Shown here piece after piece: positions 13,960 through 64,000 of a stretch of DNA of 64,000 nucleotides (its first letter is position 1; each line of letters opens with the position of its first letter). Source of the stretch: Psammoneis japonica. Lineage: Eukaryota. Made by a program: the position numbers and the translations under genes. The stretch covers positions 344,840 to 408,839 of the forward strand of contig QPGO01000016.1 of the NCBI GenBank assembly GCA_008632985.1. The letters are read 5' to 3'. The notes under the pieces were generated by a model. It had not been told where the DNA came from. It did no database searches and saw nothing but the letters and a program-made list of their open reading frames with translations.

Positions 13960-15950
13960 CTTGAAGCTCACATCAAATCATTCAACATTTGACATGACTG
14001 GATCAGCTGTCATTGAAACAAAGCCCAGCTGGCACCACTGTTGCAACAGCAAAACCCTCACCTTCAAACCACATCTTTGCAACACAAGTTGTGCTCAGAT
14101 GGGCATTTTCCAGGTGTCAACAGCAGCAACCTCCACACCCCTCAACACCAGCTAAAAAAACAACTTGATCACTGGCATCCCTTGACACAGAACACTTGAA
14201 CATGTGGTGGCTGGCACCAACTGGGGCATCTGCAGCATGACCACCAGCAACAAATCTTGCTTTCCTCACAAAGCCCATTTTGTGTTGAGAGCCAAGTGAC
14301 ATGGAGCCTCTTGACACCCCACCACTCATCTTTGCATTTCCCTCGTCAAACATGCATGCTCCAGTGCATGCCCTTTTTTCTTTTCATTTCATGCAACCTC
14401 AACCTTTCACATTTCGTTGTTGATGGCCTTCCTTGAATGACCAGCCCCCATTTCCTCATCAAGCTGCAGAGCTCCATCCATGCTCATGGTCAATTTGACC
14501 CCAAAAGTGATGCATCTGTGCTGACTTTTGACACAGGAGCACCACTTCTCTTTTGCATCAACAACATGGCTTGCTGCTGCACACTCAACTGCCATTGTCA
14601 GATTTGATGCCATGGGGTCCTCCACAAGCTTGATTTGCTCAGTGGACCAATCTCTCTTTCCATTGTGCTGACAGCTCCCAACAGTGGTTGGCAAGCAATC
14701 CCCCTTGCCTTTCTTCTTGTTGTCTGCTCTTGCTCCCAATCATCCCATCTGAGATTGGGTGCTGTCTTTTCACTCTGATGTTGGCCCCACATTTCCTCCA
14801 AAATAAAAAAAAGATGCCAAGAGTTGCCCACCTGCTCAAAGACATTTTTTCAGCAATCATGCTCACACAGTGCACTCAACTGTGGACCCATCTGCACAGG
14901 CAATCTCACTTGTGTTCTTGTGGGTCAATGACGGGGGGGGGGTTGAGCACCTCCTGCAATTGGCTGACCATCCAGCCCCACAATGCAAGTTGTTTGTTGC
15001 CACCCTCTTTCCCCCCACATTTGTGCAGCTCCCTGCTCAAGTGTTTGTCAGTGGCACCCTCATTGTCATTGCCAGGCCTCTCATCAAACAGTGCATGTTC
15101 CCAAGCGCTTCTTGCTCTGCTGGAGCTGGCCCTTTTTCATGCTCCACACCAGTGTTCTCACCTGAAACAGCGCTGCCCAGCACAAAAGCAAACCAATCTC
15201 CCACCAGCTCCAGCAGGAAATTTGTGCCATCAAGTTCAGTTTCCAACATCTGGCCAAATGAGTCAGCCTTCTTCTTGGCATCATCATTTGAGCAGTGCTC
15301 AAAAACCAAATGTTCTGCTGGTGTCTCAGAAATCAGTTTCCCACCTGGGCAATCAAAGCAACAACACATGTCAGAACCAACAACATTGTGCAACACACCA
15401 AGCCAATGAGCAAACCTCCTGGCAAGCAAATCACAAAGCAGCTGCTGCATCTGGTTTGTTGGGCAAGCCCACCACCTGTGCTGCCAACAAGACAAAATAA
15501 AAAAAACTCAAAATCCAAGTGTTTCCTGCGTTGGTTGTTTGCACTCTGACCTTGATCATTCATGCCCACCCACAGAAATGCGTGACAGATTTTGTGCTTT
15601 GTTGCGCCATTTGACAAAAAAGAGCCAGCCAGCTGCTGCAAACACCTGGCTTTTTTGCTGCCACAGTGACTGAGAGCTGTGGGTGTCTTGTGCAGTGAAT
15701 CCAAAGAAAGGGTCAATGCGACATGTTCGATGCAGAGAGCTGGACTTCTGGTTGTTTGGGCAGCTCAGCACAAGATAAAAAACTGCATGCTGTCATCAAA
15801 TTTTTGCATGCCAACAACTGCAGCAAGGAGTGTGTTTGCTGGAACTGGCCTGGTGCCAGACTCTCTCCAAAATTGTCAAGTGCAACCTCTGCACTGCTGG
15901 TGTTCACATCATTGCAGACATCATCTGCTGCTGAAAAAATCTGCTGCAAG
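13960..15950 (-). mobile_element. Degenerate Ty1/copia (CoDi-like) pol remnant
   Basis: Minus-strand translations give KMGFVRKARFVAGGH (copia RT RKARFVAGGH), SVSRDAS..VFLA, ENAHL (from GNAYL), TFGVKLTMSMDGALQLDEEMG..RKAINNEM and SNLTMAVECAAAS (from NP.EVAEYA). Confidence 0.8.
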
Positions 15951-16345
15951 ACGCGTTCCAGACGTAGGTGGGAATCCGTGTGACATTGGGCCCGTAGACT
16001 TCTACGTGCGAGCTCCGTAGTAAAATTATACGGTAATTAAAATGTCAATGATCGCCAACAGAAAATGAGGCAATTTTGCGAACGCACAAACTCGCACATG
16101 ATTGAAGTACATCATTTTTTACTTAGCCAGTTACATTCTTCAGACATTGAAGAATGTAACTGGCGCATTATTGTTTCTATAAATTTGTTATATAAAACGT
16201 CTGGGGCTTCGCAAAACAGCGAGTCTGGACAATTTTTTTTAAATATCACACGTAGAAATCTACGTACGAAACATACGACGGATGATAAAAATTATTGTTG
16301 TCACACGTCAGTACTACGAGCTCCCACCTAGGGCTGGAACGCGTC
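15950..16345. mobile_element. MITE-like foldback element, unmutated
   Basis: Inverted repeat gacgcgttccagacgTAggtggga (15950-15973) / tcccaccTAgggctggaacgcgtc (16322-16345). Inner IRs are cgtgtgaca/tgtcacacg and cgtagacttctacgtg/cacgtagaaatctacg. The interior is rich in TA and CG. Confidence 0.65.
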
Positions 16346-30633: not shown

Positions 30634-31562
30634 CACGGGATCCGCGGATGCACCAGGGGAATCTGCGAAATGCGGGATGAAAGGGGAAAAGGGGCAAATG
30701 TGAATGGTGGAAAAGTGACATGCTATTATTTTACCTTGAGGGACCCTTTAGTCAGCCAAACACGCTTGTTACCGATTTGACCCTCGTAGGTCCGTCCTTT
30801 CGGGGGTCGTTAAATTGTGAGAGCAGACGCGGTCTCGAGAAATAATTTTATATATTTTATTAGACCATTAATATTATATAAATCTGAAAACGACACACAT
30901 GAAAAAAGTGAATTTTCAACTTTATATAACCTACATAGCCAAATATATTATATAACGATTAATCCTCAAGACGCGTCCCGTCACAACATTTTGACACCCC
31001 CCATTAAGGCGGGTCATCCCCCACTTTTTTTAGCTCGAATTTGGCCGAATAGCTCGTGATTTGCATGATTTTTCTTGAATTTCACCGTGCTTCACCGTGG
31101 TGAAAACATCAAGCCATAAGTCTGTGACGGAGGTGGGCCGTGCGTCAACTTTCATTTATTTTATGCTTGTTGTGTATCTAAGGTCACATATACATCAAAT
31201 GTTTGCGCACGGACAACTACGTTTTTTGGACTTATGTCGATATTACCGTCATCGTCGTGCTTCGATCACGGTGCCTGATGTTCTCGTTTTCGTGCGCGAT
31301 CGGGGGTGAATGTAAATAATTTTTGTATTCAAAAATAAACACTATAAATATCCTTATTCAAATGCCACGATAATTTCTAGGATAAACGCGGGGATGACCC
31401 GCCTTAAGACGGACCTATGATGGTCAGATGAGAAATGTGCGTGTTCGGCTCACTAAAGGGACCCTTTTAAGGCACAATGATAGCCCCTCACTTTCCCACC
31501 ATTCCCATTTGCCCCTTTCCCCTTTCATCCCGCAATTCCCAGGTGCACCCGTGGATCCCGTG
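30634..31562. mobile_element. Non-autonomous piggyBac-like foldback element with TTAA TSD
   Basis: TTAA|CACGGGATCC at 30630-30643 and GGATCCCGTG|TTAA at 31553-31566. Imperfect inverted repeats of about 160 bp span 30634-30797 and 31408-31562. Confidence 0.8.
31008..31403. mobile_element. Nested MITE with perfect 14-bp TIRs flanked by TTAA
   Basis: ttaa|GGCGGGTCATCCCC ... GGGGATGACCCGCC|ttaa. A second, mutated copy lies at ~48230-48631. Confidence 0.85.
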
Positions 31563-42377: not shown

Positions 42378-42999
42378 GACGACACAAGAGGGAGTGCTGA
42401 AACTGAAAATCAATAGAGGAGCAGACTTATGCAGTGACAGAGGCTTTCAATACAGTAGTTCTTGCTTTGATATAAGACACAACAGAGCAAGATACAGCGG
42501 GTTGGCAGGCACTCGCATGCCATGGCGAGTGACGAGTGATCATGATGCCGCATTGGCTTTCTGCGCGCACGCGGCACGCGAGCAACACTTTTTGCCACTT
42601 TCCAACTTCCTCTCTCTCTTTTTTTCGAAAAACGAGTGAAAAACGGGAAAACGTGTTGCCAGCGCGGCGCTTTTCCAACCGTAACTCGCAATGTGAAACC
42701 AGCATTTCATTGCCATCATGCCATGACTTGTGTAGATTCCACAGTGTCAGATGCAATCCAAGATGGCACACAGGAGGTGTTTCCTGCTCTGGGGCGCATC
42801 ATGTGGGGAGCCAGTGGGCGAAAGGGAGAGCCAGGCACCATGCTTGCCAGCACCATCGCCCCCTGCCAGAGCATGCATCGCAGCACTCTTTCGGTCATTT
42901 CCCTGCACAAAACAAATGTGCTGACACATGGCACAATGGCAATTTGTGAAGAGATGAGCAGTGCCAGTGTGACAACTCAGCTGTTGCTCATGCTCAATG

Positions 43000-45800
43000 T
43001 TGTCACAATGCAAGAGCTGCCCTTTTGCCGTGTGCTGCTGCCGTTGCCGTCGGCAGCATTGCTGTCCTTCATGACACCACAAGTTGCTCATTGCCAATCA
43101 TCTTCATGAGACATTGACCAACTCAAGGAATGGCCACAAAAAAAGAACAAGGACAAGTGGCTCCAAGAGAATGCCGGCAGCACTGAAATCCTCAGAATCA
43201 CCGCGGATGACAAAAAGGCACTCCCTGAAGAATTCTCTGTCTTCATCAAGTGCAAAAACAAAAAAGGAAAGTCGTTTGCGAGGAAGGCATCAAATTCCTT
43301 CAAGAGACTGCCCAAGCACCCCATTGCATCAATCGAAGCAAAGAGCAAAGATGCGCTGCGTTCATTGTTGGACGATCCTGACATCAACTTCGTTGAGGCA
43401 AATCACAAGATGCGTGCATTGCAGCCATTGGACCATTCCACAAAGCCATTGTCTCCCAAGGAACGAAACTGGAGTCTTGTGGAACTTGTCAGGTGCGGCG
43501 TCAAACTGGTTCAGGTGGACCAGATGTGGAACATTCCAAGAAGCTCTTGACAAGCAGCAAACATGACAGTGTGCGTCATTGACAGTGGCCACACATTTGG
43601 ACATCCAGATCTCCTGACCAAAGGTGTCACTGGGACAAATGCAGGAATCAGTGATTGGAAGGTCAATGATTGTGGGCATGGGTTGCATGTGTGCATGTTG
43701 CTTGTGTTGTTGTTGTCCCAATTTCCTGAAAGAGATTCCTTCTCTCCACCATCCTTTTGAATGACGGATGCTCAGACAGTCCCGCTCATGCCTGTTGACT
43801 TGTGCTTGCCCTTGCCCTTGCAGGTGGCAGGAACAACAGCAGCACTCAGAAACAACAATCTTGGTGTCAGCAATGTCCTTGGAAACTCAAATGGTTTCAA
43901 CCTGCATGTTGGCAAGGCATTGAACAACAGAGGTGATGGCTCTGAATTCTCCTGGTGTTGAAGGCCCTTGACGGATGCATGGCGGCAGGTTCAATGGTCA
44001 CAAGTGTGAGCATTGGGGGTCCAAGAGCAAGTGACCTGACCTGCAATGCATTCCAGAAGGTGCATGATGCCAGTGCCTTGCTTTTGACTGCATCCAGCAA
44101 TGCTGGTGACACTGCACATTCTTTTCCAGCCTTGTTCTCTGATGTCATGTTGGTGTCTGTAGTTGGAGAAGACAAAGACGTTGCAACTTTTGCCCAGCAC
44201 AATGACCAGGTGGAGATTGCTGCTCCTGGTGTCCACATTTTGTCTGCAGTCCCTGCATCTGGGGGACAATGCAGCATTGGTTCCTGGAGTGGTGCGTGTG
44301 TTGAAAGCCAGATGGACCAATGTTGTGGTGCGCCTGCACTGTGCCCTTCTTCTCTTTCTTCTTTCCACCAGGTGCAAGCATGGCAACACCTTTTGCAGCT
44401 GGCATTGCTGCCATGGTTTGGTCTCATTTTGAAGATTGTGCTGATCACCAAATCAGGAATGTTCTGATCTGAACCCACAAGAGACTTGGGAGAATCAGGT
44501 TGCGGCCACGACACCGGTTTTGGTGTTGTGCAAGCAAAGGCTGCGCATGATCTTTTGAAACGTGAAGAATGCACAGCAGGTGGTGAGTCTCCACAGCCAC
44601 TTTCAAAAGGAGCCGTGGGTGGTTGCCAGCAAGACCCTTCCTGTGCCCAGCCTCCCACTCCATCCCCTGCAGAGTTTCCACGTGACAAAAAGGTTTTCGT
44701 GCTCAATCTGACAACAGATGAGTGGGGCGAGGAGACCTGTTGGATGCTCATGAATTCAACAAAGGGCATCATCAATTCGGGGTCACATCGTGAAGCAAAT
44801 AAAACACACACCACACAGCTCTGTTTGCCCCTTGATGGCTGCATCTTCACCACAGAAGACACAGAGGGTGTGATGGAATCTGTTGCAAATGTGGAAACAG
44901 CAGCCACTCCCTGCACTTTGATGGGGAGCTTGAGAAAACTGGTGGCAAATTTGGAAGCAGGGAAGCAGTCAAGTTTGGTGCAAAAAGATCGTCTGACAAT
45001 GTTTTGTCCAAAGATGGTTCACCTCCCATGACTGGGATGCCAACTCCTTCACCTTCAAGCCCACATGTGCCCAACTCAAAGATGCCAAATCAGTCAATGG
45101 TTGATGGATGTGCAGATGATCCATTTTGGATTTTCAAGACAAAAAGAGGCATTGACAAGCCATGCAGATGTTTGAAATCCAAATCTGTGTCAAGATGCAA
45201 GCTGCTTGGCAAACGTGCAAACGGGGACCCAGCACATGGGATTGAAGGTTGTCCAGTCACTTGTGGGTCCTGCTCAGAACCGGGTGCAACTGACACAGTT
45301 TTGCCTTTGCCAAAACCGGCTCTGCCACTCTCTCCTGATTGCTCATCAACAATGACATCATCAATTCAGCCTGCAGCACCACGGACACTTTCCCCCTGCT
45401 CAAAGGCAAATGGTGCTCCCAACAAAAGCTCCAACATCATCTCCAACATCTGTGCCAATGATTTTGCCCACACTGTGACCAACATCTGCTCCAACGTTGG
45501 AGCCAGCTCCAGCAGAGCAAAATGTGGAATGTCGCAATGGCCCACTGGGCTGCTGGCACGATGCTGATGGAGAGCAGCACAACTGCAAATGGCATGGACA
45601 GGATGACAATTGTGAACAACATGGGACCTTCTTTGAAAACTTTGGTGCCATCATGATGGACGCCTGCTGCACATGTGGTGGCAGCCAAATGGTTGCAAAG
45701 ACTGTGGGTGCAATTTTGCTCCCTGCAAGGCCACCCACATCATCCCCAATGCCTTGGCCTGCTTCACCAACTTCAACTCCAGCATGTCAGCCTTCTTAGT
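43000..45800 (+). pseudogene. Subtilisin (S8) serine protease pseudogene
   Basis: Catalytic-triad remnants VCVIDSG..GHPDL (Asp), GHG/VAGTTAAL (His region) and SMATPFAAGIAA (Ser), plus NDQVEIAAPGV and DTGFGVVQAKAA. The C-terminal region has LTTDEWGEETCW and GDGICC. Frameshifts and TGA stops are present. Confidence 0.85.
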
Positions 45801-45867
45801 TGCCAACCATGCCTCCAACAAGCAAGCCAACTTTGATGCCTGTGAAATGTCTGGTTTCAACCCCACT

Positions 45868-46384
45868 TGCTTGTGAAAGCCACAATGGCAAAGATTTTTG
45901 ACTTTGCAATGTGGAGGGGGGAACTGCATGTTCAGCCTGTGTTGAGAGCTGGATGGTGACAGCTGTGACGATTGCTGTGAGTCCCGAGGGGGGCACGTGT
46001 CTGTCCTTGGAAACTGCAGCTGGCTGGGGAGTCTCATGCTGAGACACAGGTGGAGGGTCCTGCCGTGACAGAGTTCACAGCAGAATGTGCTCATGCTCCT
46101 TTGAGAATGCCCAGGTGAAACGACCGGTTTCTACCACATTTGCTTGTGAAAGCCACAATGGTGGAGATTTTCAACTTTGCAACATGGAGGGGGGAACTGC
46201 ATGTTCAGCACATGTTGAGCTGGATGGCGACAGCTGCAACGATTGCTGCGAGTCCCGAGGGGGGTCATGTCTGTCCTTGGAAACTGCAGCTGACCGGGGA
46301 GTCTCATGCCGAGACATGGGAAGAGGGTCCTGCCGTGACAGAGTCCACAGCAGAATGTGCTCGTGCTCCTTTGAAAATGTCCAG
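45868..46384 (+). repeat. Direct tandem duplication (period 273 bp) of a Cys-rich coding module
   Basis: tgcttgtgaaagccacaatgg at 45868 and 46141, with near-identical sequence through cagaatgtgctc.tgctcctttga. Confidence 0.9.
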
Positions 46385-47029
46385 AAACGACAACTGCACC
46401 AACACATGGATGTGCATGGAGGAGGAAACAGAGTGCTCCACATGCATCAAGTCACCAAGCAGCAGCTGCGATGATTTTTGTGAGCAACAAGGCGCAACCT
46501 GTGTTTCTGCCAAGAGAATCTCTGGCAATGAACCCAGCTGGTGGGGTGTGACAGGTGGCATGCATTTTGCAGAGAGAGTGCTGGGGATGGCTTCCTTTGC
46601 ACATGTCCATTGCCACAATCATGAAACCCAAGCCAAAGAAGCTCTGCATGCACAAAGCTCCTCTCTGAAGTGAAGCATGAGACCACAAAATGCCACTCGG
46701 CAGCTGCAGTGGGTGCTCTTCTATGATGTGCAGCTTGTCTGTTTCAGCTCAAATCACAGCACATTCTTCACAGTTTGCAGGCCCAATCATCTGTGATGCT
46801 CGCCGCACCCAACATTTTAAAATGACAAGAACATGCTTGACAATGCTCAACAGGGAGTCAACAAATTTTCAAGATGTCTGCTTCTGCCAGACGTTGCTCT
46901 TCCTGGTGTGTCAACCATTCCAAAACGCACGTGCACCTCGACCAGTGGAATGACGTGCGCCATTGAACAAAGGGCTCACAACTTGGACTGGCTCTGAGCC
47001 ATGGCTTCAGCAGCCTCCTGGGCTTCCTT

Positions 47030-48100
47030 CCTTTTCGCTTCTGACATGTTGATGCGGAACATCAGGGTCAAACGATCCACCTCCATGCTGACAGGGGCAG
47101 CCTGGATTCCGTGATTTGATTTGCAGTTGTGTGCTTGCCGCAAGGCTTGGTGTTGATCCAGGTCACTGTCATTCCCTTCTTGGGAGCAATGACAGTTTCA
47201 GTCTCCATGCAGGGAAAGAAGATGCTGGCACCACCATTGCTGAGGCACAAGACAGTTGTGGTGGTGGCAGAAGACTGGTTGTGATGGTTGACATTGTGGC
47301 ACATCTTGGTGGGTCCACAACCGGGCTTGGCACACTGGGCACACATGCAGTCCTGCTGCTCCTCTTGGCTTGGCCAGAGGGTGGCAATTTCATCCATGAC
47401 TCGACCCACCAATTTAATGTCATCCTCGTGACTTGCAGACATGGAGAAACGGAAGCATTCCTTGTCTTTGAGGTGCTTGTGAGAGACTCCAGCACAACGT
47501 CCAAAGAGCTCCACATCATCTCCAGCACAAAGGATGGCATCCGTCAACTCATCAATCACCTTGTCATCAAAAACGCTGGAAATGGTCCAGATTCCAGGGT
47601 CTTGGGTGACAAGCTCAGATTGAGCAGACTCCTTGACGTGTGGATGCATCCAAGGAGCAATGGTGTTTTCTTCATTCTTGGAGTCAGATCCTCCAAGACA
47701 ACGATGGTCGATGCAGCACTGTTCGCAGGTGACGCACTTGGACATGTCCCCACCACAGAATGACCTCAACTTGTTGCCAAGCAGTCTCCGGTCATCAAGC
47801 TCATCTTCTGACAAGAGAGCAAACTTCAAGTCACCAAGCAGGTGACATCATTCTGAGCAGCATTTGTCGCAGAGCCACATGTCCCCACTGCAGATGCTCG
47901 AACCAGGGCGGCACTCTGGACACCACTTGTTGAACAGAAGGCAGGTGGCATGGGGGCAAAAATGCCAAAGAAACCCATCTTTGTTGAAGTGTCAAGGCCC
48001 GGAGGGTTGCAACACAGTTCTGGCAACAAGGTTGTGTTCAAAGCAGCTGTCTGCATGTGAAAGTTGAACAGAGGACTGAGCAACTCGTCGTTCACCAGAA
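47030..48100 (-). pseudogene. Prolyl 4-hydroxylase-like 2OG-Fe(II) oxygenase remnant
   Basis: LVTQDPGIWTISSVFDD and TTVLCLSNGGASIFFP...VIAPKKGMTVTWIN resemble the P4H pattern T.L.YL....GG.T.FP....V.PK.G.A..W.N. Confidence 0.55.
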
Positions 48101-48229
48101 GATCCTGTTTTTTCCGTCAGCGTCATTTCTGCTGAAAGGAAGAATTGAAACAGTGGCGGGTCAATTCTTGTGTGCACATTGATGCATGAAGTCGAAAATG
48201 TGTGGCAATGCTGCACATGCAAATGTTCA

Positions 48230-48631
48230 AGGGTGGTTGGTTGCTGCTGTTTTTAGCTTGAATTCGGCTGAATGGCTCATGTTTTGCATCGTGATTCTTC
48301 CTGAATTTCACCGTGCTTCACCGTGGTGAAAACAACAAGCCACAAGTCTGTGATGGAGGAGGTCCGTCTGCCAACTCTTGTTCATTTTATGTTTGTCATG
48401 CATCAAAGATTGCACACACCTGAAAAGTTGGCAGATGGCAAACTGCATTTTTGAGAAACATCGATGATTGTCATTGTCATCATGCTTTGATTGCAGTGCT
48501 GATGGTTCTCATTTTTGTGCACAATTGGGTGTGACTGTGAACAATTCTTGCACTCAAAAACAAACACTGCAAAAAACCTCATTCAAATGCAATGGCAATT
48601 TTGGGGGATGGGCAAGGAGATGACCCCCCTT
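48230..48631 (+). mobile_element. Mutated copy of the 31008-31403 MITE
   Basis: It shares tgaatttcaccgtgcttcaccgtggtgaaaaca and is collinear to the gatgaccc TIR remnant. Confidence 0.88.
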
Positions 48632-49299
48632 CTTGAGACTGAACAAAGATGTTTTTTGAGCTGCAGATTCCCGCGCAAATGATGAATGAGGTTCATCCCT
48701 TTTTCATCACATGAAGGAACATCACTGCTTTTGGATCACACAACCATGGTGAGGCCAACATCGTCCTTGCATGCTGATGGGTGTGGTTGAAAAAGATGCT
48801 GCTGCTGAAGCAGCGTGTCATTTGGTCGTCCACTGTCACATCATGCATGCCATGAAAGACATGGATGACAGTTCAAAAAAGGCACCAAAGAGTTTGGCCA
48901 CTTTTTTGCTCATCTCGACAACATGACTTGCATGGGTGATGAGCACTCAACACAAGTCAACGACCAAGTCAGGGGCATCAGTTTTTGGGCAGATGGACGG
49001 CATTGGAGCCATGGATGATGCCAAGCATGTTTCATCAAATTTTGAGCAGCAACTAAAAATGACATGTCTGTTGGTGTGTGTGCTTTTTGCAGCAATCTTG
49101 GGTGCTGCTGAAGCCAATGAGCAAGCATTGCTGGGACACATGGGTGGCTGGACATGTTTCTCAACAATTGGCCAAGAGCAGTGTGCCATGAGCAGTTTGT
49201 GTTCTCAACAGCGGGTGACTGTCAATTCAAACCCTGCGATCCTTGTGGTGAGTGCACCATTTTTTTAATTTGCTGCACAGGTGGTTGTTGGGTGAAACA

Positions 49300-51950
49300 T
49301 CTGGCACGTGTTGTTTCATTCCTGTGGCTGGGAGTCACGTTTTCCAATGCACGCTTCTGCGGGATCAGCATCGCTGCGGGGACAGCCTGCAGACACAGGA
49401 AAGCAAGTTGCATCATTGGTGGCTGCAGTGGGGATGCCTGCTGCATCCCAGTTTCATCATCAGGTCTGAGGAATGACAAAACATGAAAAAAATGCAAACT
49501 TGTCAGCCACTCTTGTCTCATCGAAATGGCTCTGTCAACCAAGCACGATTTGCCATGCAGCAGCAATGCCACACGCCAGCAGCATCGCAAAGAGCATGAG
49601 CAAGAAGGAGAGAAATGGCTTTGCAAATGATTTTCATCTTTTTTGTTCAAGATTTGGCTCAATGCTGTTTTGTGGACCTCAAGTGGATGAGACTCAACAG
49701 TGGCCAGAGAGACACTCGACTCTTGTTTTTCATTTTGAGACTCTTTGTCACAACACTTTTTAATTGCCGGAATCACAAAAACAACTGTTCAAACAGACAT
49801 TTCAAAGACTTTTAAACCACCAGCAGAAAGCTTCCAGTTGACTGCTGTGCACAATTGTGCAATCTGATGTGGAATTGGCATTTTTTGTGTCTGCTTTTGG
49901 GGTTCTTTCCTGGGGTTTCAAAAAACACATTCCAGATGGGATGAATTGATGTGGTCTCAAGTTTTGGCTCAGCTTCCTCATGCGGTGCTTTCTTTTTGCT
50001 TCCATTTTACTGCCAAAGCACAAGGCAGTGTGAGACACTGGGTCCCACATGTTTCCTGAGGCAACCAGTTGCATTTGTGGTCATCGGGGTTGTGGGTTTT
50101 GTCACCAGGGCAGTCACATGCCCAATGAAAGTGGTTCACTTGGTTCTGAGCACACACTTTGCATTGCTGTGCCAATGCACAAGAGCCAAGAAGTCCATCA
50201 GAAATGCACACACAAGGGTGGGTGCAATGACACTTTCTTCACTGCCTGTCCAGCAAACACCCAGGTGCACACGGGTTCTTTGCTGCAATTTGTGGAAACT
50301 CCTGAGTGGCGCTGCTTGGAGCTGTTGGTGACCACAGTTCCTGCGCTGAAAACCTGTCAGCAACTTTGTCCTTTTGCTTCCCAGCTTGGCAACTTTGGAA
50401 GATGACAGGTGCACAGAGGCGACATGTCCCAAGATCAGCCAGGCTTCCAGCTGGTTCCCGGCAGCCTGCTTCATGCACGACAATTCACTGACCGCAAGTT
50501 CATGTGCAAATCTCTCATTTTGGGTCACCTGGGTTTTGCCCATGTGTGGGAGCATGCCAACCACAAAGTCTTCTCAAGGAGGCAGGTGTCACAACAGCAA
50601 GTGCCCAAAGTGATCTCCAACATGCAACAGCTCTCCACACAAATGTGCTGCTGGTGGCAACTGCTTTCCGCCTCAAGCTTGCCATCATGTTGCTTGCCAG
50701 GTCTGCAGGCACCATTTTTCTTTTGCATGGTTGACCAACCATGAACTTAAGGCAATTCCAGCTGCTTTCATGAGAGAGAGAAGTTTTTGGGGTCATTTTG
50801 ACACTCAACTCAAAAACAACATTGCCAAATCTGTGGGGTGATCTGGGTTTGCTCGCACAGTTGGTTTTGCACTGCTTGGGTTCATTTCAGCAACCTTGTG
50901 CATCAACTTTTGAGTGATGCATCAAGACTTGCAAAATCTTTTGAATGCAACAGGCCCACATTTTGGGGTGGAGTGTGCCGCGATTCGACATTTTCTTCTG
51001 CACACAGAGAAGCCACATGTGATCTGCTTTCTCACATTGTTGTCAACATTGGCAGCACTGCTTTTGCAATGTCACAATCAAAGTTTTGTTAAAATGGCTG
51101 CATGCCATCATGCAACTTGCACACAAAAATGGCAGTCGATGCTCAACTCTGCTCGCAGATCAGCAAACGGAGTTGCTTTGCCACATGTCTCGCAGCACGG
51201 GAGCTTTTGTCACCCCCAGCTTGAAAGCAGCTGGCGCTCTTTGAGAAAAAGAGTGCACTGTCTGATTTGCAATGTCCCAAGATCCCAATGAACAAGTCTT
51301 TTGATGGTTGGGAGCTTTTGTCAAAACTTGTGAAAACTTGCATGAAAACAAACAAAACTTCGATCTCAAGATCAGAAGCCTTTTGTGTTGCTGGTGCGGC
51401 GCAGCTGGTGGCGGAGCAATTAAAAAAAAAAATGGAAAAAGAAGAGCAGCCACCTGTTTTGACACACTGCAGCAGGTCTTGTTGGTGCACCAAAGCATTC
51501 CCAAGTGAGTGAAAATGTTGTCCTCTGTTCAATCGCTGCATGTGCTGGCCGCCAAAAATTGTGTGGCTGCACCCACAGAAATGTGTTTTTTGAATCATGC
51601 ACACGTGGTGCTGCTGAGAAACCTGAAACACATCTGCTGCTGCTGCTCTTGTGATGCACCACAATGCCATGACTTGCATTTTGCCATTTTTTTCTCTTGC
51701 CATTTTTTTCTCTTTTGTTGGGAGCAAAAAACTCATGGAAAACATCGATGCTCAGCAACTTGGCTGGTCCTCTGTTTTGCCATGGCTTCTCTTGTTGGTG
51801 TGGCACAACACACCAAGAACCAGACCATCAAACTGACCTCGGGTTCTTCTTCTTCAACAGAAGAATTGCTCGGAGGAGTTGAGGAGGACATGGTGTGGGA
51901 CAGTTTCACAGAGACATGTCCATGCAGGTCAGAGTGCGCTCTCTTGGTGC
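49300..51950 (-). mobile_element. Possible degenerate hAT-like transposase remnant
   Basis: Minus strand ~49500-49620 reads PFLSFLLMLFAMLLACGIAAAWQIV..SHFDETR, loosely like the hAT dimerisation motif FP.L..LA......A..ERVFS. The support is weak. Confidence 0.3.
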
Positions 51951-52230
51951 CGAGCTTTTCTTGTGCCGGGTCCCGTGTCGCCGCTGGGAACAGTCTGTTG
52001 CCGCAAAAACAAAAATTTAAAAACATGTGACTAACGGAAAATGCCAAAAATGCCATCTACAAAGCTTAATACTTTACAAATAGCATATAAAAATTCATTC
52101 ATGTTTATGTCAGTCTTGTTTATGACATAAATATCGGGAATAGCTCGGCGTTTTCAATGTGCATGATCGATGATCCGAGTAAGTACGGTGTGGGGGCTGT
52201 CAACGTTTTTCTTTTATGTATTGTTGCTGG

Positions 52231-53288: not shown

Positions 53289-54399
53289 CTGCTTGAACTT
53301 TGGGGGTTGCGTGTCCTTTGGCTCCTGCGATTGAGCTCTGTGGGGGTAATAAAGCGCGAGAATACCTGTTGTCTCAAGTTCCAATTTAGCTATGTAGATG
53401 CCGGACGTGGTGGAATAGTAGCACTATCTTAGCATGATTATGTACGCCTTAGAAATCACAGATGTGGATCACAAGGTGGTGCATCTGTTCCAGGGCTTGA
53501 TAAGGTTATCGTGTATCACGAAGACTTGAGAATGCTAGCGAGATTCTCCTTTCAGCCCGGCACTGCTCAGTGCCGGTAGAACTTTGCATTTGGTCGATAA
53601 AAGTGGTGAAGTCGCTATAACCACGGTGCCTGCATTGAAGACGGAAGGCTCCGCCCGATCAGATGGCAAAGGAAAGGATCATGCTCGCAGCACCTTCTTC
53701 AACCACCACCCCCAGAGATATTTCCATGCTTGAGGCAGAGTCAAATGGTTTCTTTTAAAAATGTTCTTCTTACTGTTTGCTGAGAAACGGTGCTCAAAGC
53801 TGTAAAAATCAACAACTCCCTTTCAACAATTCCTCAAGGATTCAAAACTGGAACAATGACAACTTTCTCTAGCCTGGTCCTTCTCAACGTAAGCCTCTTT
53901 TGCATTTCTTCACCGCCAATGAGAAAAAAACTCAACTCAAAACAGAGGCACTCCACACCACAAATGGACAACTGTTTTGCATGACAGCTTTTTTCTGCTG
54001 CCAGATTTTGTGTCATTGGTGTGATGAGCAAAAAGAAAAAGACCAGCAGATGGTGGCAACTCTGTGGGTTGAGTCTTGGTTCTTGGATGAGCAAGAACAG
54101 GGAGCTGGGATCATTGGCAAGCCTCATCTGCATCCTTGCTGATTTTTTTATGCGCCAAAGAATGCATCAACCAAAAGGTCACCTGTGCACTTTGTTCTAC
54201 TTGCTGACATTGAGCAACTCCTGACTGAGTTTGAAGCTTTTCAGCTGGAGCATGCTCCATCTGTCATTGACAGTCTCAACAACTGGGACATTTTGTCTTT
54301 TGTCACAGTGTGGAGTGGCCAAAAAGGAAGCGTGAAAGTCAGACAATTTGGGGAAGTTAGTCCAGGGTGGTTTGGGAGGTGGAGGTGGAACAGAGAAAA

Positions 54400-55345
54400 A
54401 GAGCTGTTGTTGTGGGAGCAGTGACCTAAAAGGAAGGTGCAGAAATGATGGTGTCCAGCACTGCCCACCAAGTGATGGAGGGTGAAGGGGAGAAAGAAGA
54501 AGCCAGCTTTGTCAACAGCAGCAATGGCAGAAGAGCCATTGGCAAAAGCAGTGTTGCATTGCTGAAGTTTGTCCAGCAGGGCACTCCTCAGGTGAGCTTT
54601 GGCAAGAAGGTTGGGAGACAAGCAAACCAGGTGCAGGGCAGGAAAGAGCTGCAGGAACAGTGACATCAATGGCAAGGATGGGACAGTGACATTTGCAGCA
54701 GGAATGATTGCACCAGTGCTCTCTGTGTGCAGTGTTGGGCTTGAAATTGTTGCTGAAGCTGCAATTTTGTTGGTCAGGGACTGTCTGCCCAGATGCACAT
54801 GTGATGAGTTCATGTGTGCCATTGTCATCTGGCAGTGCATTGTGGATGACAGACAATGCAGCAGGATGAAAGTGGGTCATGCAGACAGAAAATGAGGGGT
54901 TTGGGAGAGGGACAGAGTGGCAAGGTGTGTGTGCAATTTGGTCAAATGGTGGGCAAGTTGATCAGGCAGCAAGGGACCTGTTGGCCACAAGACCAAGGCT
55001 TTGGAGGTGTTGCTGGAGTGGGGCTTGGTGGGAGGCCAAAGCGGGTTGCTGAAAACGCATCCTTTCACTGCAAGGAGGATCCCTGGAGGCAAGCATTGGG
55101 CACAGGTGCATGCAGCGTGGGCAGCTGGGGGTGCTGAAAGGAGGGCTTGGGCTGCCCAGCTGTCCAAGGCAGAGCAGGAAGGGATGGGGTGGTTTTGGTT
55201 GCAGCAGCAAACTTGCTGTGGGTTTTGTGATTGCTTCTGAACTTCTGCTTGGTGCTCACATTGTGTGCACCCTTGGCAAAAGGGTCAAGAGTGTGAGCAG
55301 ACCAACTGCTGCACATGGTCAGACTGCGTGCAGATGACAGTCAGA
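54400..55345 (-). mobile_element. Degenerate non-LTR (RLE-type, CRE/R2-like) retrotransposon 3' part; probable 5' part at ~60850-61400
   Basis: LAIDVTV ... AH ... FLPFT ... G.AG...FL resembles the C-terminal restriction-like endonuclease, and TCASGQ is a zinc-knuckle remnant. 61230-61260(-) reads FRFCCPVHP, like an N-terminal zinc finger. Confidence 0.45.
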
Positions 55346-58300
55346 TGTTTTAGATTGACAAGCAGATCTCTCTGAGATCTGCTTCTCTCACTCTTTCTTG
55401 TCAGTGCATGCGTTGTCACTGTTGCCAGGTTGCAGGGAGGACCCTTGCACTTGTCATCACTCTCAGCCACCACCATTCTGACAGGTCATGGCCCTGCAAG
55501 GTTCGCATTTTTTTGCACTGCAGTCCTCGCTGTGATCCACTCAATTTGTGAGCCAATCAAGCCAGCATCATTTTTGATCCTGGCAGAGATGTTTGCTTGG
55601 AGCCAAGATGATTTTTTAGCCACAGGACAATGCTGTGCTGGCTTCTGCATCTGTTTGATCAAAAACAGTTGCAAAACTCCCACCATCTTGTCAAGATCAC
55701 CATGGTGTTCCAACCACACCCTCACTGCAACAAGGCTTCCAAGCACCTGAAACATCTGTGTGGTGGTTCTAAACCTGCAGAATCAAAAGATGGTGTCATT
55801 GATCTCACTCTCACAAGAGCACACCACCAATCACATGATCCCCCAGAGACTGGAGACCCCCAAGGACAAACTGCCAGTTGCAGCATCCCTCCATCAGAAG
55901 TTGCCTCTTGGGATCATGACTCCAGCCAGTGACTGTGCTCCATCTCATCTCTCTAAAGAGACAAATGCTGGATCACAAGATCAAGACTGCTCTCAAAATC
56001 TGCATCCCTGAAGGCAATCATTCAGATTGGTGCTGGACATGTCTGCTTCAGTCCAGACATGTGGCGTGCTTGTTGGGGCTGGAGTGAGTTTTCTGATGCA
56101 GCTTCCCCCCCCCAAGCATGCACCCAAGACCCCAGCATCATCATCTGCAGGATCAGGGTCAGCCAACATCTCTGATTTGATCAATGCACTGAGTGACAAC
56201 CATGCAACTTCAAAAAAAGCACCCCCCTTCTGGTGGGTGGCCACACATGTGTCACCCCTTCTGCACAACTGCAACTTTGTCATCCAAACATTTGTTGAAC
56301 CTGGATGCTCTGCCAACAAAGGACATCCACCAATGTTTTGATCACAAGTTTGCCAAAAGAGTGATTCCCCAGAACTCACTTGGGCCTTTTGATGATGGAA
56401 ATTTGTGCCATTTGGATGGCACAAACTGCCTCATGTTGGCTGATGGACTGCTGTTTGTGATGGATCTCATGCCAGACCACAAGGTGGCACCCCCTTGTGA
56501 GCCAAGTCTGTGTCATGACAACTTGCCACATGGCATGCACCAGTGGTGTCTGAACGTTTAGAGGCATGCAAGTGATTGTGGGTGCTGTGCTGCTCACCAT
56601 TGTGGAGCTTCGTGCACAACCACGGTGGTGACTGGGGCTTTGCTGTTGGAAACAAAACACTTCCAATGATCTCCCACAATGAGCGCAACACATTCATTGC
56701 CTTGAATCATTGTGCATGATTCACAAGCTCCTCTTGCACTCAGATGGCTTCCCCAAGAACAGCCAGCCATGTCACATTGTTGCCTCTTGCTGTTGCAGTG
56801 GGTGCAATTCATTGAAGCAGATTCCATGTCAAGCACACCCACCAGCATTCTGTGATGAAGTGCCCAGCTTGGTGGACTCACATCCAAAACAAGGCAACCT
56901 GTCAATCATGGACTGCTCAGTTCCATTCAATGATTTTTTGCAGCTCTGTGCCTTCATTTTTGACACTGACTTCTCTTTGGATGACAACCAAGTGATCAGC
57001 ATCTTTGTCAAGAATGCCAAGTGCTCTTGAAGTTCTCGATGTGTGTCACCAAGAATGACCGTGCATCTCCAGCTCATCAATGCAAGTGAACTGCAAAGCA
57101 AATTTTGAGCAATGAAATGTTGGTGCAAACAATGGTCTTCAAGTGTTGGATCCTCCTGAACCAGATCCCAATTCTCCAGACCTGGTCCCAGATGATGTGT
57201 TGGCTCCACATGACAACACTTTTGAGATGTCATGCAAAGAGTTGGAAGCAACAGATTCAAGATGTTCCTCCTGCAGATGACAATCATCTCCTGCATCATG
57301 CCCACTCAGCTTTGGTGCACAAGCTCAAGGCATTGGCTGCCAGCCAAAGCTGCCAAACATCCACGATGTTTTGTGTGTGGCTGCTGGCAATCATCTGTTT
57401 GATGATTGCCCCATTCTCCAGAATGACCCACATGTCAAGGGTGTTCACACTCAGCTCTGCCAATTTTTGAAGTGCAAGGCTGCTCAACATGATGCAACCT
57501 TTGCTGGCAACCAAGGTGACTTGCCTGCTGGACAGAATGGGCAGGCTGTCCTTCTGACTGAAGCTCCACTGCCAGGTTTGTGTGGGCCATTGCAGCTGCC
57601 AGCAGTTTCAGATCCATGATGCAGCCCATTCTCTCCTTCCTGAGACACAGCCAATGATGGTGTGGCAACTGAGAAAAAAGGACTCACAATTCTGTTGCCC
57701 TTCCACTGACACAAACCACTTTCTTCACATGTTGACATTGGCCAGAATCAACTCACCAGTCCTCTGACAAAACCTGTTGTTGCACAACTCTCCCTGACAA
57801 AAATCCCATGGGAGGGCTGAGGAAACTGTTGAGCTTTTCAATTTGGAGTGTTCCAAATGTTGCAAGGACTCAGGGTTTGCCATGCTTGACTCAATTTGAG
57901 TCTGGCTCTCCATCCATGCCACAGTGGATTTCACCAAGCTGAGCATCATGAAGCTTTTGAAGTCAATGCTGTCAATTTTTTGAATGATGAATGTGGTGTG
58001 CAGTTTGACACTGGGGCCTGTGTCTCCTGCACCAATGAGTGAGATCTCCTCTGCCATCATCAGGCAAATGGTGCCCCCAAAAATCCATGCCCATTCAAGG
58101 TCAATCCAGTGCCCAGACAAGCTGCTGTCCCTCACAGCTGCAGCTGTCTGTGTGCTCCAGCAGAAACCAAAGAGGGTCATGTTGCCATCCATGCATGCTG
58201 CCACCCCAAGCTGCAATTGACTTTGGCAGACAAAAATGCTTTTTACATGGCTGGTGGCAGGCACAAGCAAGATTTCATGGCAGATTGTTTGTTGAAGTTC

Positions 58301-60845
58301 CACGACCATGGTGCGCACAAGCATGTTGCAAAAGCATCACTTCCATGCCACTCAAGACACACTGTCCATGGTCAGCTGATTGACAGCAAGCACCTTGCTC
58401 ATCCCTTGATCCTCCCAGAATTGGATGACATGCTAGATGAAGCAGCATTGGACCTCAAGAGCACAGACCCTGATTTTGCCAAGGAATGCAACATGCTGGT
58501 GGTGCATGTGATTGATGCCTGCAAGGAAAATCAAGAAAACACCCTCATGGAGCAATGAAAACTCATTCCATGCACATGTTAAGATGTGCCTTTTGAGACT
58601 TGCCTTGAAGATCAAGCACCCATCCAGCTGCTCAAGGCCAGTGCAGAACACTTGCTTTGGCATCAACACCTCAGACATCCCAGTGACCATTGTTTGCACA
58701 ATGCACACAAATGCATCAAGGTTGCTCCCAAGTTTGCTCATGGCACTTCCCCTTTGTTGGACACTTGCCCTGCTTGCAACTGAGCAAAGCAGACAAAAGA
58801 CCCTGCCAGCCCCAACTTGATGCACTCAATGACTCAGCCATGCCAAGGTCCAATGGTGGATTTTGCCTTCTCTGGTGTCAAATTGAAGAATGAAGAGTGT
58901 GCTGTGGGGACCATGCAGGACTCAACAGTGAGACTTGTTGGGCTCCTGTTCATGACCGCTGCACCAGTTGTCTCCATGGTGCTGCTCATGTTTCCAAGGC
59001 CATGCCAATTGAATGCACCCATCATTTTTTGGAGGACCACTCACCACAATGTCAAGACAAATGTGTGGCTGTTGATCAAGGTGGTGATCAGCACAGAAAT
59101 CCAGCAGTGCAAAGACTTTTTGAGCAAGATTTTTGGCACACTGTGAGCCCTTCTCTGTCACAGATGCCTCCAATCAGAGTGGCATCATTGAGCACAGTTG
59201 CTCCACCATGCAGAACACAATCCAAGTCATGCTCATCAGAGCAGATTTGCTGGTCAAGTTTTGACCACCACATGCTTTCCATCATCATTGCACTCATGTC
59301 AAGAGTGCAGCTCCATTAAAAGATCAACATGTTGCTCCCATTGCTCTTGCCACAGGAAAGGCCAAGGACTTGGTGATGTTTTTTGCACATTTGGTTGCCA
59401 TGCACAAGCTTGCAAGAATGCCAAACACCCTGCTGTGATGTGCTCCAACTCCAAAAAGGGCATCTTCCTTGAGCACATGCTGGACAGACACTGCCAAGAG
59501 TGCTGTGTGGCATGACCCTGAGTCCAGCCTCATCAAGGTGGACAATCATTTTTGCTTTGACAAAGGCATGAATGCCCTTCCCCACAATCAAGCACTGCCA
59601 GATCATGTCATCCATCTTCAACTGACACAGAATGGCAAATCATTCCCAGCCAAGGAGAGGAAACTTCAATGGAAAAATTTCATTTTTCTGGTGTTCCCTT
59701 TGCCAAGACTCCAACACACACACTGCAACAGCCCACATCGGATCCAATGTGTGGCACCACTTTAAAGGTTGATTAGCTGTTTGATCTTGCACACTTGTCA
59801 CATGTCAAACATGGCAGTCCCATGGCTCACCTGCCCTTCAAGGCTGCTCAGAACAAGATCGTGGGTGGGTGCATTGGTTTGACCAATGGCACAGATGTTT
59901 TCACTCAGCATCATGCTGAAGCAGAGCTCCAAGAATGACTGCATGATTTGGGCACCCCTTTTTTCAAAATTGTTTTTGTGCTGAGGCAGCACTCCAATGT
60001 GCTTTGATTGAATCTGAGCTGCCCCCTCCCAAAGAGGAGCATGTGCCTTGACTGCAATGGCGGTTGTGCATGCTGTTGCAGCTTTGCATTTTCCTGATGT
60101 TGATTTCTCCACTTTGGATGATGTGGAGCCCAAGTTGTTGCCAACAATTGACAATGAATGTTGCACACTCAACAATTTTGTGATTTTGTCCCATGCTGTC
60201 ACCCCAGAGGAGCAGGCCTTGGATGGTTTTGCCCATGACAAGCTCAAGCATCAACTGCCCATGTGGGAAAAATGGCAGGACGAGCGTGAGCTCACTCAAC
60301 TTGACCATTTTCATGTGTTGGGAATGTTTGGGTGAGCCCAGGCACCAATCAAGCAACTGAAGGATGCTGCAATGCTCTGGCCACATTGGCGGTGCAATGG
60401 TGCTCTTGATGCTCTTGATGCTGTTGTGATGGACCCTCTGTGCTGCTCCTGCTTTTGCTCATCATGTGTGGAGCAACCCGCTCAACAATTTTTTTGCACT
60501 GTCAGAATTGATGGGTTGTGGAGTGTGCTCAAGCAACATCCAAGATGCTTGCACTCACTTGCCAAGTCTTTCGACTCCAGTGTGCACTCAGACAAATGAG
60601 GCTCGCGCTGCTTCGCATGAAAGCTGCTTTGGCATTGAGCTTGATTGACCCATGGCAGGACACACATGCAATCAAGATTTTTGATGCTGATGGCAAAACA
60701 CTTCACCAACCCATCAAAGACATGGCTCTGTTCAAGTGCCTTCTTGGACTTTGTGCTGGTTTCAGCAGCACCCACTCCAACCCGCATCACGGCACTGCAT
60801 CAGCTGCGTGTCACATCTGCGTTTGCCGGGCTCTCAAGTCATGAA
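55346..60845 (+). mobile_element. Degenerate Ty1/copia (CoDi-like) LTR retrotransposon, 3' truncated
   Basis: Putative LTR TG..CA at 55346-55483, then GGTCATGGCCCTG (copia PBS is GGTTATGGGCCCAG). Integrase-tail remnants FGC...SKKGIFLEH and HFCFDKGMN follow. RT remnants are ELTQLDHFHVLGMFG, LWPHW, CCDG, SSCVEQP and THAIKI. Confidence 0.8.
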
Positions 60846-61816
60846 GGTGGATTGATTCTTGAGCTGCTCCCCTCTCAGTTGAGCACACTTCCAAGTTGCA
60901 CTTGGACATTGGGCCTTTTGATGGCTGTCCAAAGCACAAGGAGCTTGCTGTGTGTTGGTGTGCTGTCACGGGGGAGAGCCAAAGGAGCAGCCACAGAGGT
61001 CCAGAGGGGGTTTGTTGGAGGATGAGGCACACCAGGTCATTGGTGGAAGTGTGCACGTGAGTGGTGAGGATGCAGCGGGCTTGCAAAGGGGCTTGGTTCA
61101 TGCATGTGGAGCAATTCCTGGGCAGGTGAGGTGGGCAGCTTCAGTGGGCGTGGAGGGTGGTGCCGTGAGTGTTGTGTCATGACAAGCACAGATGGAGAAG
61201 GAGCTGAAGGGCTTAAATGGTTGCTGGGGTGCACTGGACAGCAAAAGCGAAATGACCCGTTGGTAGTTGTCTCGGTCATTATTGGGTTCTCTGTGGGCAT
61301 GTCTCGTCTGTGGGAGGAAATGACTCGTCGAACATCATCGAGCACGGCTCGGGGGAGGAGCGGAGTGGTTCTTTGGAGATGTTCGATCGGTCATCGATCG
61401 GGTCATTGATCAGGGGGCTTCAATGGAGGGAAATAAAGGGCGGGCGACAAGCGACGGTGGCGGCAAAGGAAGGCGAAAGTAATGATGCGCGTTGTGGTGG
61501 TCTGGGGGCGGATCAGGGGGGCAGAGCAAAGTACGAGTGCGTGCTCTGTGATAGCTCTACTCTCTAGTAGCTAGAGCTCTATTCTACTCTCTTGCTCTAG
61601 AGAGTAGAGAGCGCCGTCATCATGGAGGGTCATCGCAATTCTGAACGGTCGAACGCGGCAATAGGAATCGGGGATACTTAAAAGAATTTTTTGTCCTCAT
61701 TCTGTAGAAGTAAATACTGTAGTTCGTCCGATGACCAAATTTTCATTTTGAAAGTTTGACTCTTTCAATTCCCCGAAGACCCATCATGAAACGCGACACG
61801 GCCAACAAAAAGCGTC

Positions 61817-62984: not shown

Positions 62985-64000
62985 TCAACTTGGCTCGGCT
63001 ACGTCCCAGCCGAGACAAGTCGAATTCCTGCCTGTTGTCGCCGGGTCAGCTCTACTCCGGAAGCAAGGTAGCACATGATGGTCCCACACCGGTCGCGGAG
63101 CCGTAGGGAGGAGCCGCGAGAGTGCTTGACGACTGCATCCATGCTTCAAACGCGAACATGTCAAAATTACTTTTCGCTTTTCGCGGGCTGATCGGGAACC
63201 GCCTGCAAGGCCGCTTTCATTGCCCAAGCCCTCCCCCGACAACACACCCACCTCAAGGACAAACAAACCCAAAGCACACTCTTCCAATGATGTGCTGTCA
63301 CTTCGATCACTCACCTCCTCACCATGGATGTTTGCTTCCAGTCCTCCAGCAATCTGGACCCATTCCACTGGGCCTCCTCCCCTTTGCCAACGCCGTTGTT
63401 GGTGACTCTCTCTGCTTTGTGCCCCACCCGACTGCCACCTCTTTGCCTCCTCCGACAACAGCTCAACTGACAATCTTCCTTCCAGCCAATCTTGGCAGTG
63501 TTGGCTGCCAAGGCATTCCCACCTTGGCTGTCCCCTTTTCCCTTTTATCTCCCTCACCCATGCTCTCCGTGGTGTTGCCAAACAGGGCGTGTTCTCAATC
63601 TGCGACCAGAGCTTTGAAGCACCACCCAGCCAATCCTCTGTTCTTTCCTTCTTGGACTCATTCTCAACTCTGCCTTCATCTCTGCACCATCTTCTGCCTT
63701 CTCTTCCCAACACTCTTTCAACTTGACTCCCGCAGTTGCTCTGTGCTGTCCTCAACCACAACCTCTGAGGCTTGTCTCAATGTGCCCCTTTTTCAATGCC
63801 ACCCACCCTTCAGCTGGTCCTTCTCTCCCCTCACCAGCCTTTGCCTCCACTCTCTTTCTTGAGCCTTCCCAAGTTGCTGCCTCTCATCAACTCAGTTTGC
63901 TCTTCTCCTCTGCAACTCTGCAACTCTGCCTCCCTGCCATTCCTCCCAGTCCATGGAACCTCCGTTTCTCCTGTGGACACTCCCACCCTGACCCCTTTGG
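62985..64000 (+). mobile_element. Probable 5' part of a degenerate non-LTR element entering a hypermutated domain
   Basis: C-rich strand. RFHCP resembles the FRFCCP segment at 61230-61260(-). TpA is almost absent after ~63170. Confidence 0.35.

Follow-up and report, generated by a model that had tools for sequence, protein, structure and literature searches.

TpA- and CpG-depleted blocks in the nuclear DNA of the diatom Psammoneis japonica and the fate of a transposable element copy within them

Targeted hypermutation of DNA as a form of genome defence is established in fungi, as repeat-induced point mutation (RIP), and, for retroelements, in animals. In RIP, duplication of a sequence sets off the conversion of CpA/TpG to TpA. 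In vertebrates and plants, the CpG of methylated transposons decays through deamination of 5-methylcytosine. Here we describe one 64-kb window (the whole stretch of DNA that was analysed, to which all positions refer) of nuclear DNA from Psammoneis japonica, QPGO01000016.1, in which four blocks have lost nearly all of their TpA and most of their CpG. Two copies of one miniature inverted-repeat transposable element (MITE) lie in the window, one in normal DNA and the other inside a block; we refer to them as the 31k and 48k copies.

The closest described system is the TpA-targeted hypermutation of integrated nucleocytoplasmic large DNA viruses (NCLDVs) and virophages in the chlorarachniophyte Bigelowiella natans (Mettrop et al., bioRxiv 10.64898/2026.01.13.699255). 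As reported in that preprint, 231 of the 302 nuclear mutations found in mutation-accumulation lines fell within integrated NCLDV and virophage DNA. Nearly all of these were A-to-G or T-to-C, all lay on TpA and they arose in silenced integrated viruses at ~6e-7 per site per generation, for which the authors propose an ADAT2-like DNA adenine deaminase acting as a defence (bioRxiv 10.64898/2026.01.13.699255). Full-text literature searches, whose coverage left out most subscription journals, returned no report of TA-free blocks in diatoms.

TA and CG depletion in four blocks

The four blocks together occupy 24.7 of the 64 kb. Block 1 (8800..16000) retains 21 TA and 106 CG in 7.2 kb; within it lie diverged duplicates and a low-complexity stretch rich in C. 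Block 2 (42734..52017), in which the 48k MITE copy lies, retains 18 TA and 170 CG in 9.3 kb, and both of its edges are sharp within ~200 bp. Block 3 (53900..61213) is the most CG-depleted, with 15 TA and 42 CG in 7.3 kb. Only the start of block 4 (63105..64000) is seen, with 3 TA and 23 CG in 0.9 kb, the block continuing past the window end. The rate in the other 39.3 kb predicts 948 TA and 1324 CG for the blocks, against 57 and 341 counted. Observed/expected ratios in the blocks were 0.04 for TA, 0.23 for CG, 1.83 for TG and 1.78 for CA. The longest TA-free runs extended up to 1685 bp. The transitions into normal DNA are abrupt for the set of blocks, taking ~200 bp or less, and at the 52.0-kb edge the TA count rose from 0 to 16 per 200 bp within one step.

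The total of pyrimidine-purine steps was almost identical in the blocks (0.2415) and outside (0.2411), a loss of 0.0759 in TA plus CG being matched by a gain of 0.0763 in TG plus CA. As only transitions keep this total constant, we conclude that the change took place by transitions. The 12.1 kb of DNA outside the blocks that is not part of an open reading frame (ORF) had observed/expected ratios of 0.65 for TA and 0.95 for CG. Since this non-ORF DNA keeps its TA and CG, the process is targeted, and the genes are not islands that selection protects from a general pressure.

Both strands were affected to a similar extent. The blocks contain 2680 TG and 2887 CA, and when block 1 is excluded the counts are 1999 and 1963. 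A runs test on the order of TG and CA revealed no strand-coordinated tracts in any of three blocks (|z| < 1.8, as in normal DNA). The sole place with a broken TG/CA balance is the C-rich, CA-skewed low-complexity stretch at 12800-14400 in block 1, where GC skew is about -0.38 and CA:TG is 137:62 and 145:57 per 800 bp; it includes degenerate internal repeats at 13471-13941.

The two losses did not proceed alike. Loss of TA was uniform, with 0-3 TA per 400 bp throughout the blocks, whereas the survival of CG differed ~5-fold among blocks (42 CG in 7.3 kb vs 170 in 9.3 kb), which argues for two rates. The surviving TA were concentrated next to T or A runs: 36 of the 57 in the blocks stand in TT-TA or TA-AA context, as against 236 of 1510 outside (p = 4e-15). 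The tetranucleotide TTAA survived at 0.43 of its normal density, and none of 301 ATAC, ATAG and ATAT survived. Survival of CG was 0.15-0.45 in all contexts, being slightly higher between G/C neighbours. Judged from the sequence, the dependence of TA on its flanks is behaviour that would be expected of an enzyme.

Duplicated sequences within the blocks carry a trace of the same changes. Four pairs of diverged duplicates exhibited 6, 6, 6 and 4 double differences of CA versus TG, compared with 1.7, 1.4, 0.6 and 1.2 after shuffling, corresponding to 3.4 to 10 times the shuffled values. Such an excess is expected if each duplicate had resolved an ancestral TA or CG independently. In block 2, a 273-bp tandem duplication at 45842-46391 (86% alike) has 33 differences, 20 of which fall at pyrimidine-purine steps and include 6 CA/TG flips and 8 cases of CG versus TG or CA.

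Applying the thresholds of the B. natans study for 1-kb windows (Rho TpA <= 0.43, Rho CpA+TpG >= 1.52), 23 of 64 such windows pass, in three runs of 7, 9 and 7. The locus resembles B. natans, as the preprint describes it, in several further respects. In both, the strand decides whether TpA gives TpG or CpA, the process is restricted to defined regions adjoining normally mutating DNA, TpA depletion and CpA+TpG enrichment occupy clustered 1-kb windows, and the affected genes are mostly unannotatable. The differences are equally plain. The host here is a diatom (Stramenopiles) rather than a rhizarian, and depletion is saturated, TA standing at 0.04 of expectation as compared with 0.45 in the NCLDV region of the preprint. 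CpG is co-depleted (20 of 27 in the MITE; observed/expected 0.23), such that the spectrum is not limited to A:T-to-G:C, although the CpG loss may be a separate, superimposed process. The flank rule of T/A runs for surviving TA has no counterpart among the analyses in the main text of the preprint, which mentions neither context nor diatoms. Where the B. natans targets are viral, the converted sequences here include a DNA transposon as well as what was once an ordinary gene. Finally, the elevated rate in B. natans was measured across generations; the present data give an indirect measure, in that contig pieces of run X2 differ at 123 of ~1228 letters in a block vs 3 of 7037 outside.

Two side observations concern DNA next to the blocks. 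A CpG-dense island (52200-52700, 47 CG per 400 bp) adjoins the right edge of block 2 on its outer side, within the 1.9 kb of normal DNA that separates blocks 2 and 3. At 16400-17050, upstream of an ORF of 954 aa with a VWD domain, a 177-bp tandem repeat comprises three units that are 85-89% alike; TA is scarce in it (0-3 per 200 bp), and CA/TG flips distinguish the units. This repeat may be a small block in which conversion was partial, with a TA-rich spacer of 400 bp between it and block 1.

The MITE pair and the direction of change

The unconverted copy of the MITE (31008..31403, forward strand) is 396 bp long and has raw counts of 26 TA and 27 CG. Its ends form a perfect 14-nt terminal inverted repeat (GGCGGGTCATCCCC and its complement, read directly) and are bordered by TTAA duplications at 31004-31007 and 31404-31407. 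In the converted copy (48231..48629, forward strand) raw counts give only 2 TA and 6 CG. The tetranucleotide on its 5' flank (48227-48230) is TCAA, one transition away from TTAA, and its 3' duplication is ambiguous, being either TTCT or, past a 3-nt insertion, TTGA. Words of the family occur in read contigs at a depth of 3000-5000, as compared with ~59 for single-copy DNA, i.e. 50-90 times. The terminal inverted repeat, TTAA duplication, length of 396 bp and many copies identify the element as a TTAA-target MITE, and the TTAA by itself would place it among non-autonomous piggyBac-like elements. A metagenome scan with the conserved MITE core (two CG positions made degenerate) gave 0 matches.

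The 31k copy is nested in a second element, whose inverted arms (30630-30796 and 31408-31566) are 78-82% complementary. A read contig that joins 31002 to 31412 without the MITE represents an empty-site paralogue; it follows that the outer inverted-repeat element is itself repeated in the genome.

Alignment of the two copies gave 294 identities in 406 columns, and BLAST aligned 388 bases at 74.5%. Comparison of the flanks revealed no homology past the element ends. A first-pass annotation, made by eye, had listed a series of TA and CpG changes between the copies; all of them were found in the alignment.

The fates of aligned dinucleotides were counted with the 31k copy as the starting state and the 48k copy as the outcome. 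Among the 25 aligned TA, 13 became CA and 6 TG, 2 were kept and 4 changed otherwise; the earlier proposal that TpA resolves to either product, with both strands being hit, is therefore upheld. CG behaved similarly, with 9 of 27 giving TG, 11 giving CA, 3 kept and 4 changed otherwise. Conversely, none of 51 aligned TG/CA became TA and one became CG, while 7 were flipped between CA and TG. Single transitions thus took TA or CG to TG or CA at 39 of 52 sites, and the opposite direction accounted for 1 of 51. Both of the TA that were kept in the converted copy stand in TTTTA context.

Transitions occurred at a per-site rate of 0.40 in TA and 0.38 in CG, compared with 0.165 in TG/CA and 0.092 elsewhere, at sites outside pyrimidine-purine steps (TA and CG vs the rest, Fisher p = 5e-9). 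The rate at TA is 4.4 times that at these other sites, so TA is not merely as changeable as any other context, the outcome that would have undone the by-eye proposal. Transversions had a rate of 0.07-0.12 in every context class (p = 1) and made up 14 of the 32 changes outside pyrimidine-purine steps. Because transversion rates are flat across contexts, we conclude that the excess of transitions, which greatly surpasses chance, is specific to TA and CG. About 20% of the sites outside TA and CG also differ between the copies, from which it follows that the two belong to different sublineages of the family.

The direction of change was read from the rest of the family, in read contigs. At 48354 the family majority is C (CG) where the 48k copy has TG; at 48383 it is T (TA) where the 48k copy has CA; and at 48379-48380 the family has CA and the 48k copy TG. 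The family majority is hence TA/CG, and not TG/CA, at the sites visible in read contigs. For the rest of block 2, 14 variant sites were listed and 582 more were not; at 12 of those 14, other contigs restore TA or CG. The 31k copy, which had been called intact, has perfect terminal inverted repeats and keeps its TA and CG, but it is not the family consensus. It has minority letters at 31059 and 31075. Its 5' terminus likewise differs from the majority terminus in loose contig ends.

The flanks of the 48k copy are as free of TA as the copy itself, and the 31k copy lies in normal DNA; position rather than the sequence of the element governs conversion, as first suggested by eye. Repeat status is not sufficient for conversion, since the 31k member of a multi-copy family is untouched. 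The MITE is a passenger, and the actual feature is the set of blocks.

These fates also set the process apart from RIP. Like RIP, it is regional, transition-only and dinucleotide-specific, inactivates DNA irreversibly and leaves a strong dinucleotide signature. Unlike RIP, it runs in the opposite direction, in that TpA is destroyed and TG/CA gave TA in 0 of 51 cases. Nor is it triggered by duplication, a member of a multi-copy family at 31k having kept 26 TA and 27 CG.

Coding content of the blocks and support from reads

Besides the MITE, the blocks hold pieces at multi-copy depth and a decayed frame resembling prolyl 4-hydroxylase. Within their 24.7 kb there are 131 long and overlapping frames of at least 90 aa, an abundance that arises from the lack of TAA and TAG on either strand. 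Likewise, tyrosine is not encodable by any frame of a TA-free block.

The prolyl-4-hydroxylase-like ORF (47071..47847, reverse strand) lies in block 2 and is without any tyrosine. It aligns with a homologue, P0122, at 48% identity (E = 1e-56), and P0122 in turn matches solved prolyl 4-hydroxylases weakly (E = 1e-4). None of the five tyrosines of P0122 aligned to the frame is kept, three of them being replaced by Cys. Four of ten aligned arginines are kept, and another four have become Cys, His or Gln. The number of cysteines rises from 7 in P0122 to 17 in the frame. A metagenome scan with P0122 DNA yielded no confirmed match, and neither P0121 nor P0122 matched a Pfam or NCBIfam family.

In block 1, an open frame at 9363..10388 (reverse strand) has weak codon periodicity and one distant homologue, together with a partial, diverged paralogue at 12239-12567. 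Weak codon periodicity survives in a few block frames. A homologue search with the ORF at 43900-45018 (reverse strand) found none, and the ORF at 57728-58336 (reverse strand) had no usable Atlas match.

Among the intron-free ORFs of the normal DNA outside the blocks are those for PGK, a WD40 protein, a proteasome subunit, PhoD and an MscS-type channel. The best protein relatives of PGK are diatom sequences, at 79-84% identity. In the PGK ORF (23986-25401, reverse strand), ~74 residues precede the start of the Pfam domain, and its 471 aa compare with ~435-445 aa in the best diatom relatives. The N-terminal extra may be an organelle-targeting extension, or merely reflect an upstream start codon picked by the ORF caller.

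The sequence of block 2 is present in sequencing reads. Read-derived k-mer contigs of one run contain 98% of the sampled 31-mers of 42200-52199. Contig depth was 58.7-65.2 in the normal part and 30.6-36.9 in the five listed identical pieces within the block; parts of block 2 stood at 2-4 times single-copy depth. For 46656-47840 a second piece was found at depth 27, with 122 other letters of 1185 and 12 gaps. In run X2, 123 of ~1228 letters differ inside the block; four pieces outside have 3 differences in 7037 letters, and a fifth, which spans the left edge (41777-42468), has 15 in 692. Transitions outnumbered other changes by 469 to 114 in X1 and by 317 to 63 in X2, MITE paralogues included. 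These data suggest two homologues that are ~10% apart inside the blocks, and the depths of 34 and 27, set against 58.7, favour their being alleles.

Explanations considered and significance

Transitions in the blocks fall almost exclusively at the two self-complementary pyrimidine-purine steps, on both strands about equally. Conversion has taken in a copy of a DNA transposon together with tandem repeats and what were once protein-coding genes, and DNA a few hundred bases beyond a block edge is untouched. Because all block contents are converted while nearby DNA is not, the process follows position and neither sequence nor repetitiveness. We therefore regard a position-targeted, in-place conversion of TpA and CpG to TpG/CpA as highly probable, and read it as a region-targeted mutational genome defence, as opposed to selection or artefact.

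With regard to mechanism, we propose two components, and hold the complete account, with its deamination steps and its link to methylated chromatin, to be somewhat more probable than its negation. The first would be a fast, TpA-specific A:T-to-G:C mutator of the kind described in B. natans, most simply a DNA adenine deaminase able to act on either strand of TpA and hindered where TA abuts a run of T or of A. The second, acting on the same DNA at a lower rate, would be the deamination of 5-methylcytosine at CpG. Since the loss of CpG is co-extensive with that of TA, the blocks may represent long-term methylated, silenced chromatin, the mark of which could direct the TpA mutator. The role of the process would be the irreversible inactivation of silenced or foreign DNA, in which all Tyr codons are destroyed and Arg codons scrambled.

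Methylation of transposable elements at CpG by DNMT5a in Phaeodactylum, as well as RID-related DNMT4 genes in diatoms, have been reported (PMC9998398). With these on record, 5-methylcytosine deamination would be the simplest source of the CpG component. As in the decay of methylated CpG in silenced DNA elsewhere, CpG gives TpG or CpA on both strands, and its survival here is somewhat higher in G/C-flanked contexts. That decay, however, leaves unexplained the loss of TA, which outpaces that of CG and has gone further towards completion. A likeness also exists to the editing of animal retroelements by ADAR and APOBEC, which acts on RNA or single-stranded cDNA (summarised in the Discussion of bioRxiv 10.64898/2026.01.13.699255). 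As summarised there, this too is a deaminase-type, context-dependent transition hypermutation (5' U/T before A) against selfish or viral nucleic acids. It marks one strand, whereas both strands of a DNA transposon and of the whole flanking block are changed here.

Several considerations weigh against the account we propose. A simulated conversion of TA and CG in neighbouring normal DNA reproduces the changes at pyrimidine-purine steps, yet misses the shifts of other dinucleotides (r = 0.17). The observed shifts of GC (+0.018), AT (-0.011) and CC (+0.0125) are unexplained by simple conversion, and the G+C of the blocks is 0.495 where the simulation gives 0.463. The DNA from which the blocks arose may have been unlike the neighbouring genes; if not, a further A:T-to-G:C component is present. 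As the simulation fails on these dinucleotides and on G+C, we do not claim that the blocks originated from DNA like that of their neighbours. The idea of foreign DNA is not helped by the frames in the blocks: none of the 131 stop-to-stop frames of at least 90 aa reached the Pfam cut-off, a search that short decayed domains may escape. Nor did viral contigs contain relatives of P0122 or P0121, and no viral hallmark was found. The MITE family consensus is visible at only a few sites, the assembly may have been built from the very run that supports the sequence, and the diverged second version could be a paralogue in place of the other haplotype. The enzyme, the methylation, the chromatin mark and de novo mutation are all matters that we infer here from sequence.

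A single chemistry might instead underlie the same regional conversion at both steps. Oxidised thymine is mutagenic, and a TET/JBP-type dioxygenase that oxidises thymine and 5-methylcytosine could, through mispairing, cause T-to-C changes at TpA; a dual A/C DNA deaminase (ADAT2-like) is the other candidate. This would account for the common edges of the two losses, for their equal completeness in the MITE (2 of 25 TA and 3 of 27 CG kept) and for the fact that both steps are self-complementary pyrimidine-purine steps affected on both strands. The preprint, moreover, cites ADAT2 enzymes as able to deaminate A as well as C in DNA (bioRxiv 10.64898/2026.01.13.699255). We nonetheless consider a single chemistry unlikely. 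The ~5-fold variation of CG survival between blocks is at odds with the uniformly saturated loss of TA, and the flank rules differ, TA being protected by T/A runs while CG survival is roughly uniform (0.15-0.45). In B. natans, the de novo mutations in the preprint lie on TpA only, and its text nowhere brings in CpG.

It is very improbable that selection against TA and CG shaped the blocks, for example as an escape from a nuclease, from a transposon targeting TA or TTAA, or from a sensor acting at the RNA level. An absence of TA and CG is by definition symmetrical on both strands, meaning that even a strand-specific constraint could yield it, and TTAA-targeting MITEs are present in the genome. 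Selection would, however, have accepted transversions too, which account for 14 of 32 changes outside pyrimidine-purine steps, yet the step total is unchanged and 39 of the 47 lost TA/CG went by single transitions, with 8 other changes. Decayed frames, the loss of every Tyr and the lack of a Pfam domain bespeak degradation rather than constraint, and the block still took in a MITE of the TTAA type.

We give equally little credence to the blocks having been acquired horizontally, from a virus or otherwise, with the MITE and repeats included and already free of TA and CG on arrival. Such an origin would suit their sharp borders, the lack of recognisable host genes and the integrated viruses that are the targets in B. 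natans according to the preprint. Against this, the MITE family is resident and multi-copy, with majority letters of TA/CG at the visible sites, and related genomic contigs carry TA/CG at 12 of 14 listed sites. Paralogues within the blocks have also resolved the same ancestral sites differently, and scans of viral contigs gave no viral relatives. A foreign origin is, on the other hand, compatible with conversion in place after arrival.

Base modifications cause transition-type miscalls on some platforms, and the supporting run may be the assembly source; a sequencing or assembly artefact in which modified bases are misread is even so scarcely credible, given that read k-mer contigs contain 98% of sampled words, that calls at each site are consistently TG or CA where a strand-specific miscall would give a mixture, that the substitutions are coherent and fixed in the MITE, the paralogues and the comparison with a protein homologue, and that two distinct versions, each at half depth, fit real alleles.

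Returning to the two-component account, a more ambitious form of it may be entertained, tentatively and as a possibility we would not favour over its denial. Here, diatoms would possess a chromatin-directed eraser of palindromic steps: once DNA is committed to methylated heterochromatin, editing of TpA adenine (or thymine) and deamination of CpG would proceed until no TA or CG is left, independently on each homologue and alike in viral DNA, transposons and former host genes. The TpA activity would be shared with Rhizaria, as an ancient defence across the Stramenopiles-Alveolata-Rhizaria (SAR) group. If true, this would constitute a functional mirror image of fungal RIP, and a plain scan of dinucleotides would suffice to find it in the genome of any protist.

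The consequences for the genome are also practical. The blocks defeat gene prediction, their long false ORFs probably being called as genes by an automatic annotator; they inflate apparent heterozygosity and mask the origin of the DNA that they contain. The sharp borders, the flank rule for TA, the co-extensive CpG signal pointing to methylation and the MITE family as a genome-wide dosimeter all offer handles on the mechanism. The signature is saturated over more than one-third of the 64-kb window and ends no more than a few hundred bases from housekeeping genes. The precedent among protists is a single 2026 preprint on one species, and a diatom with the same TpA signature represents a second lineage. 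The diatom case would show that the process extends beyond one peculiar alga and beyond insertions of giant viruses.

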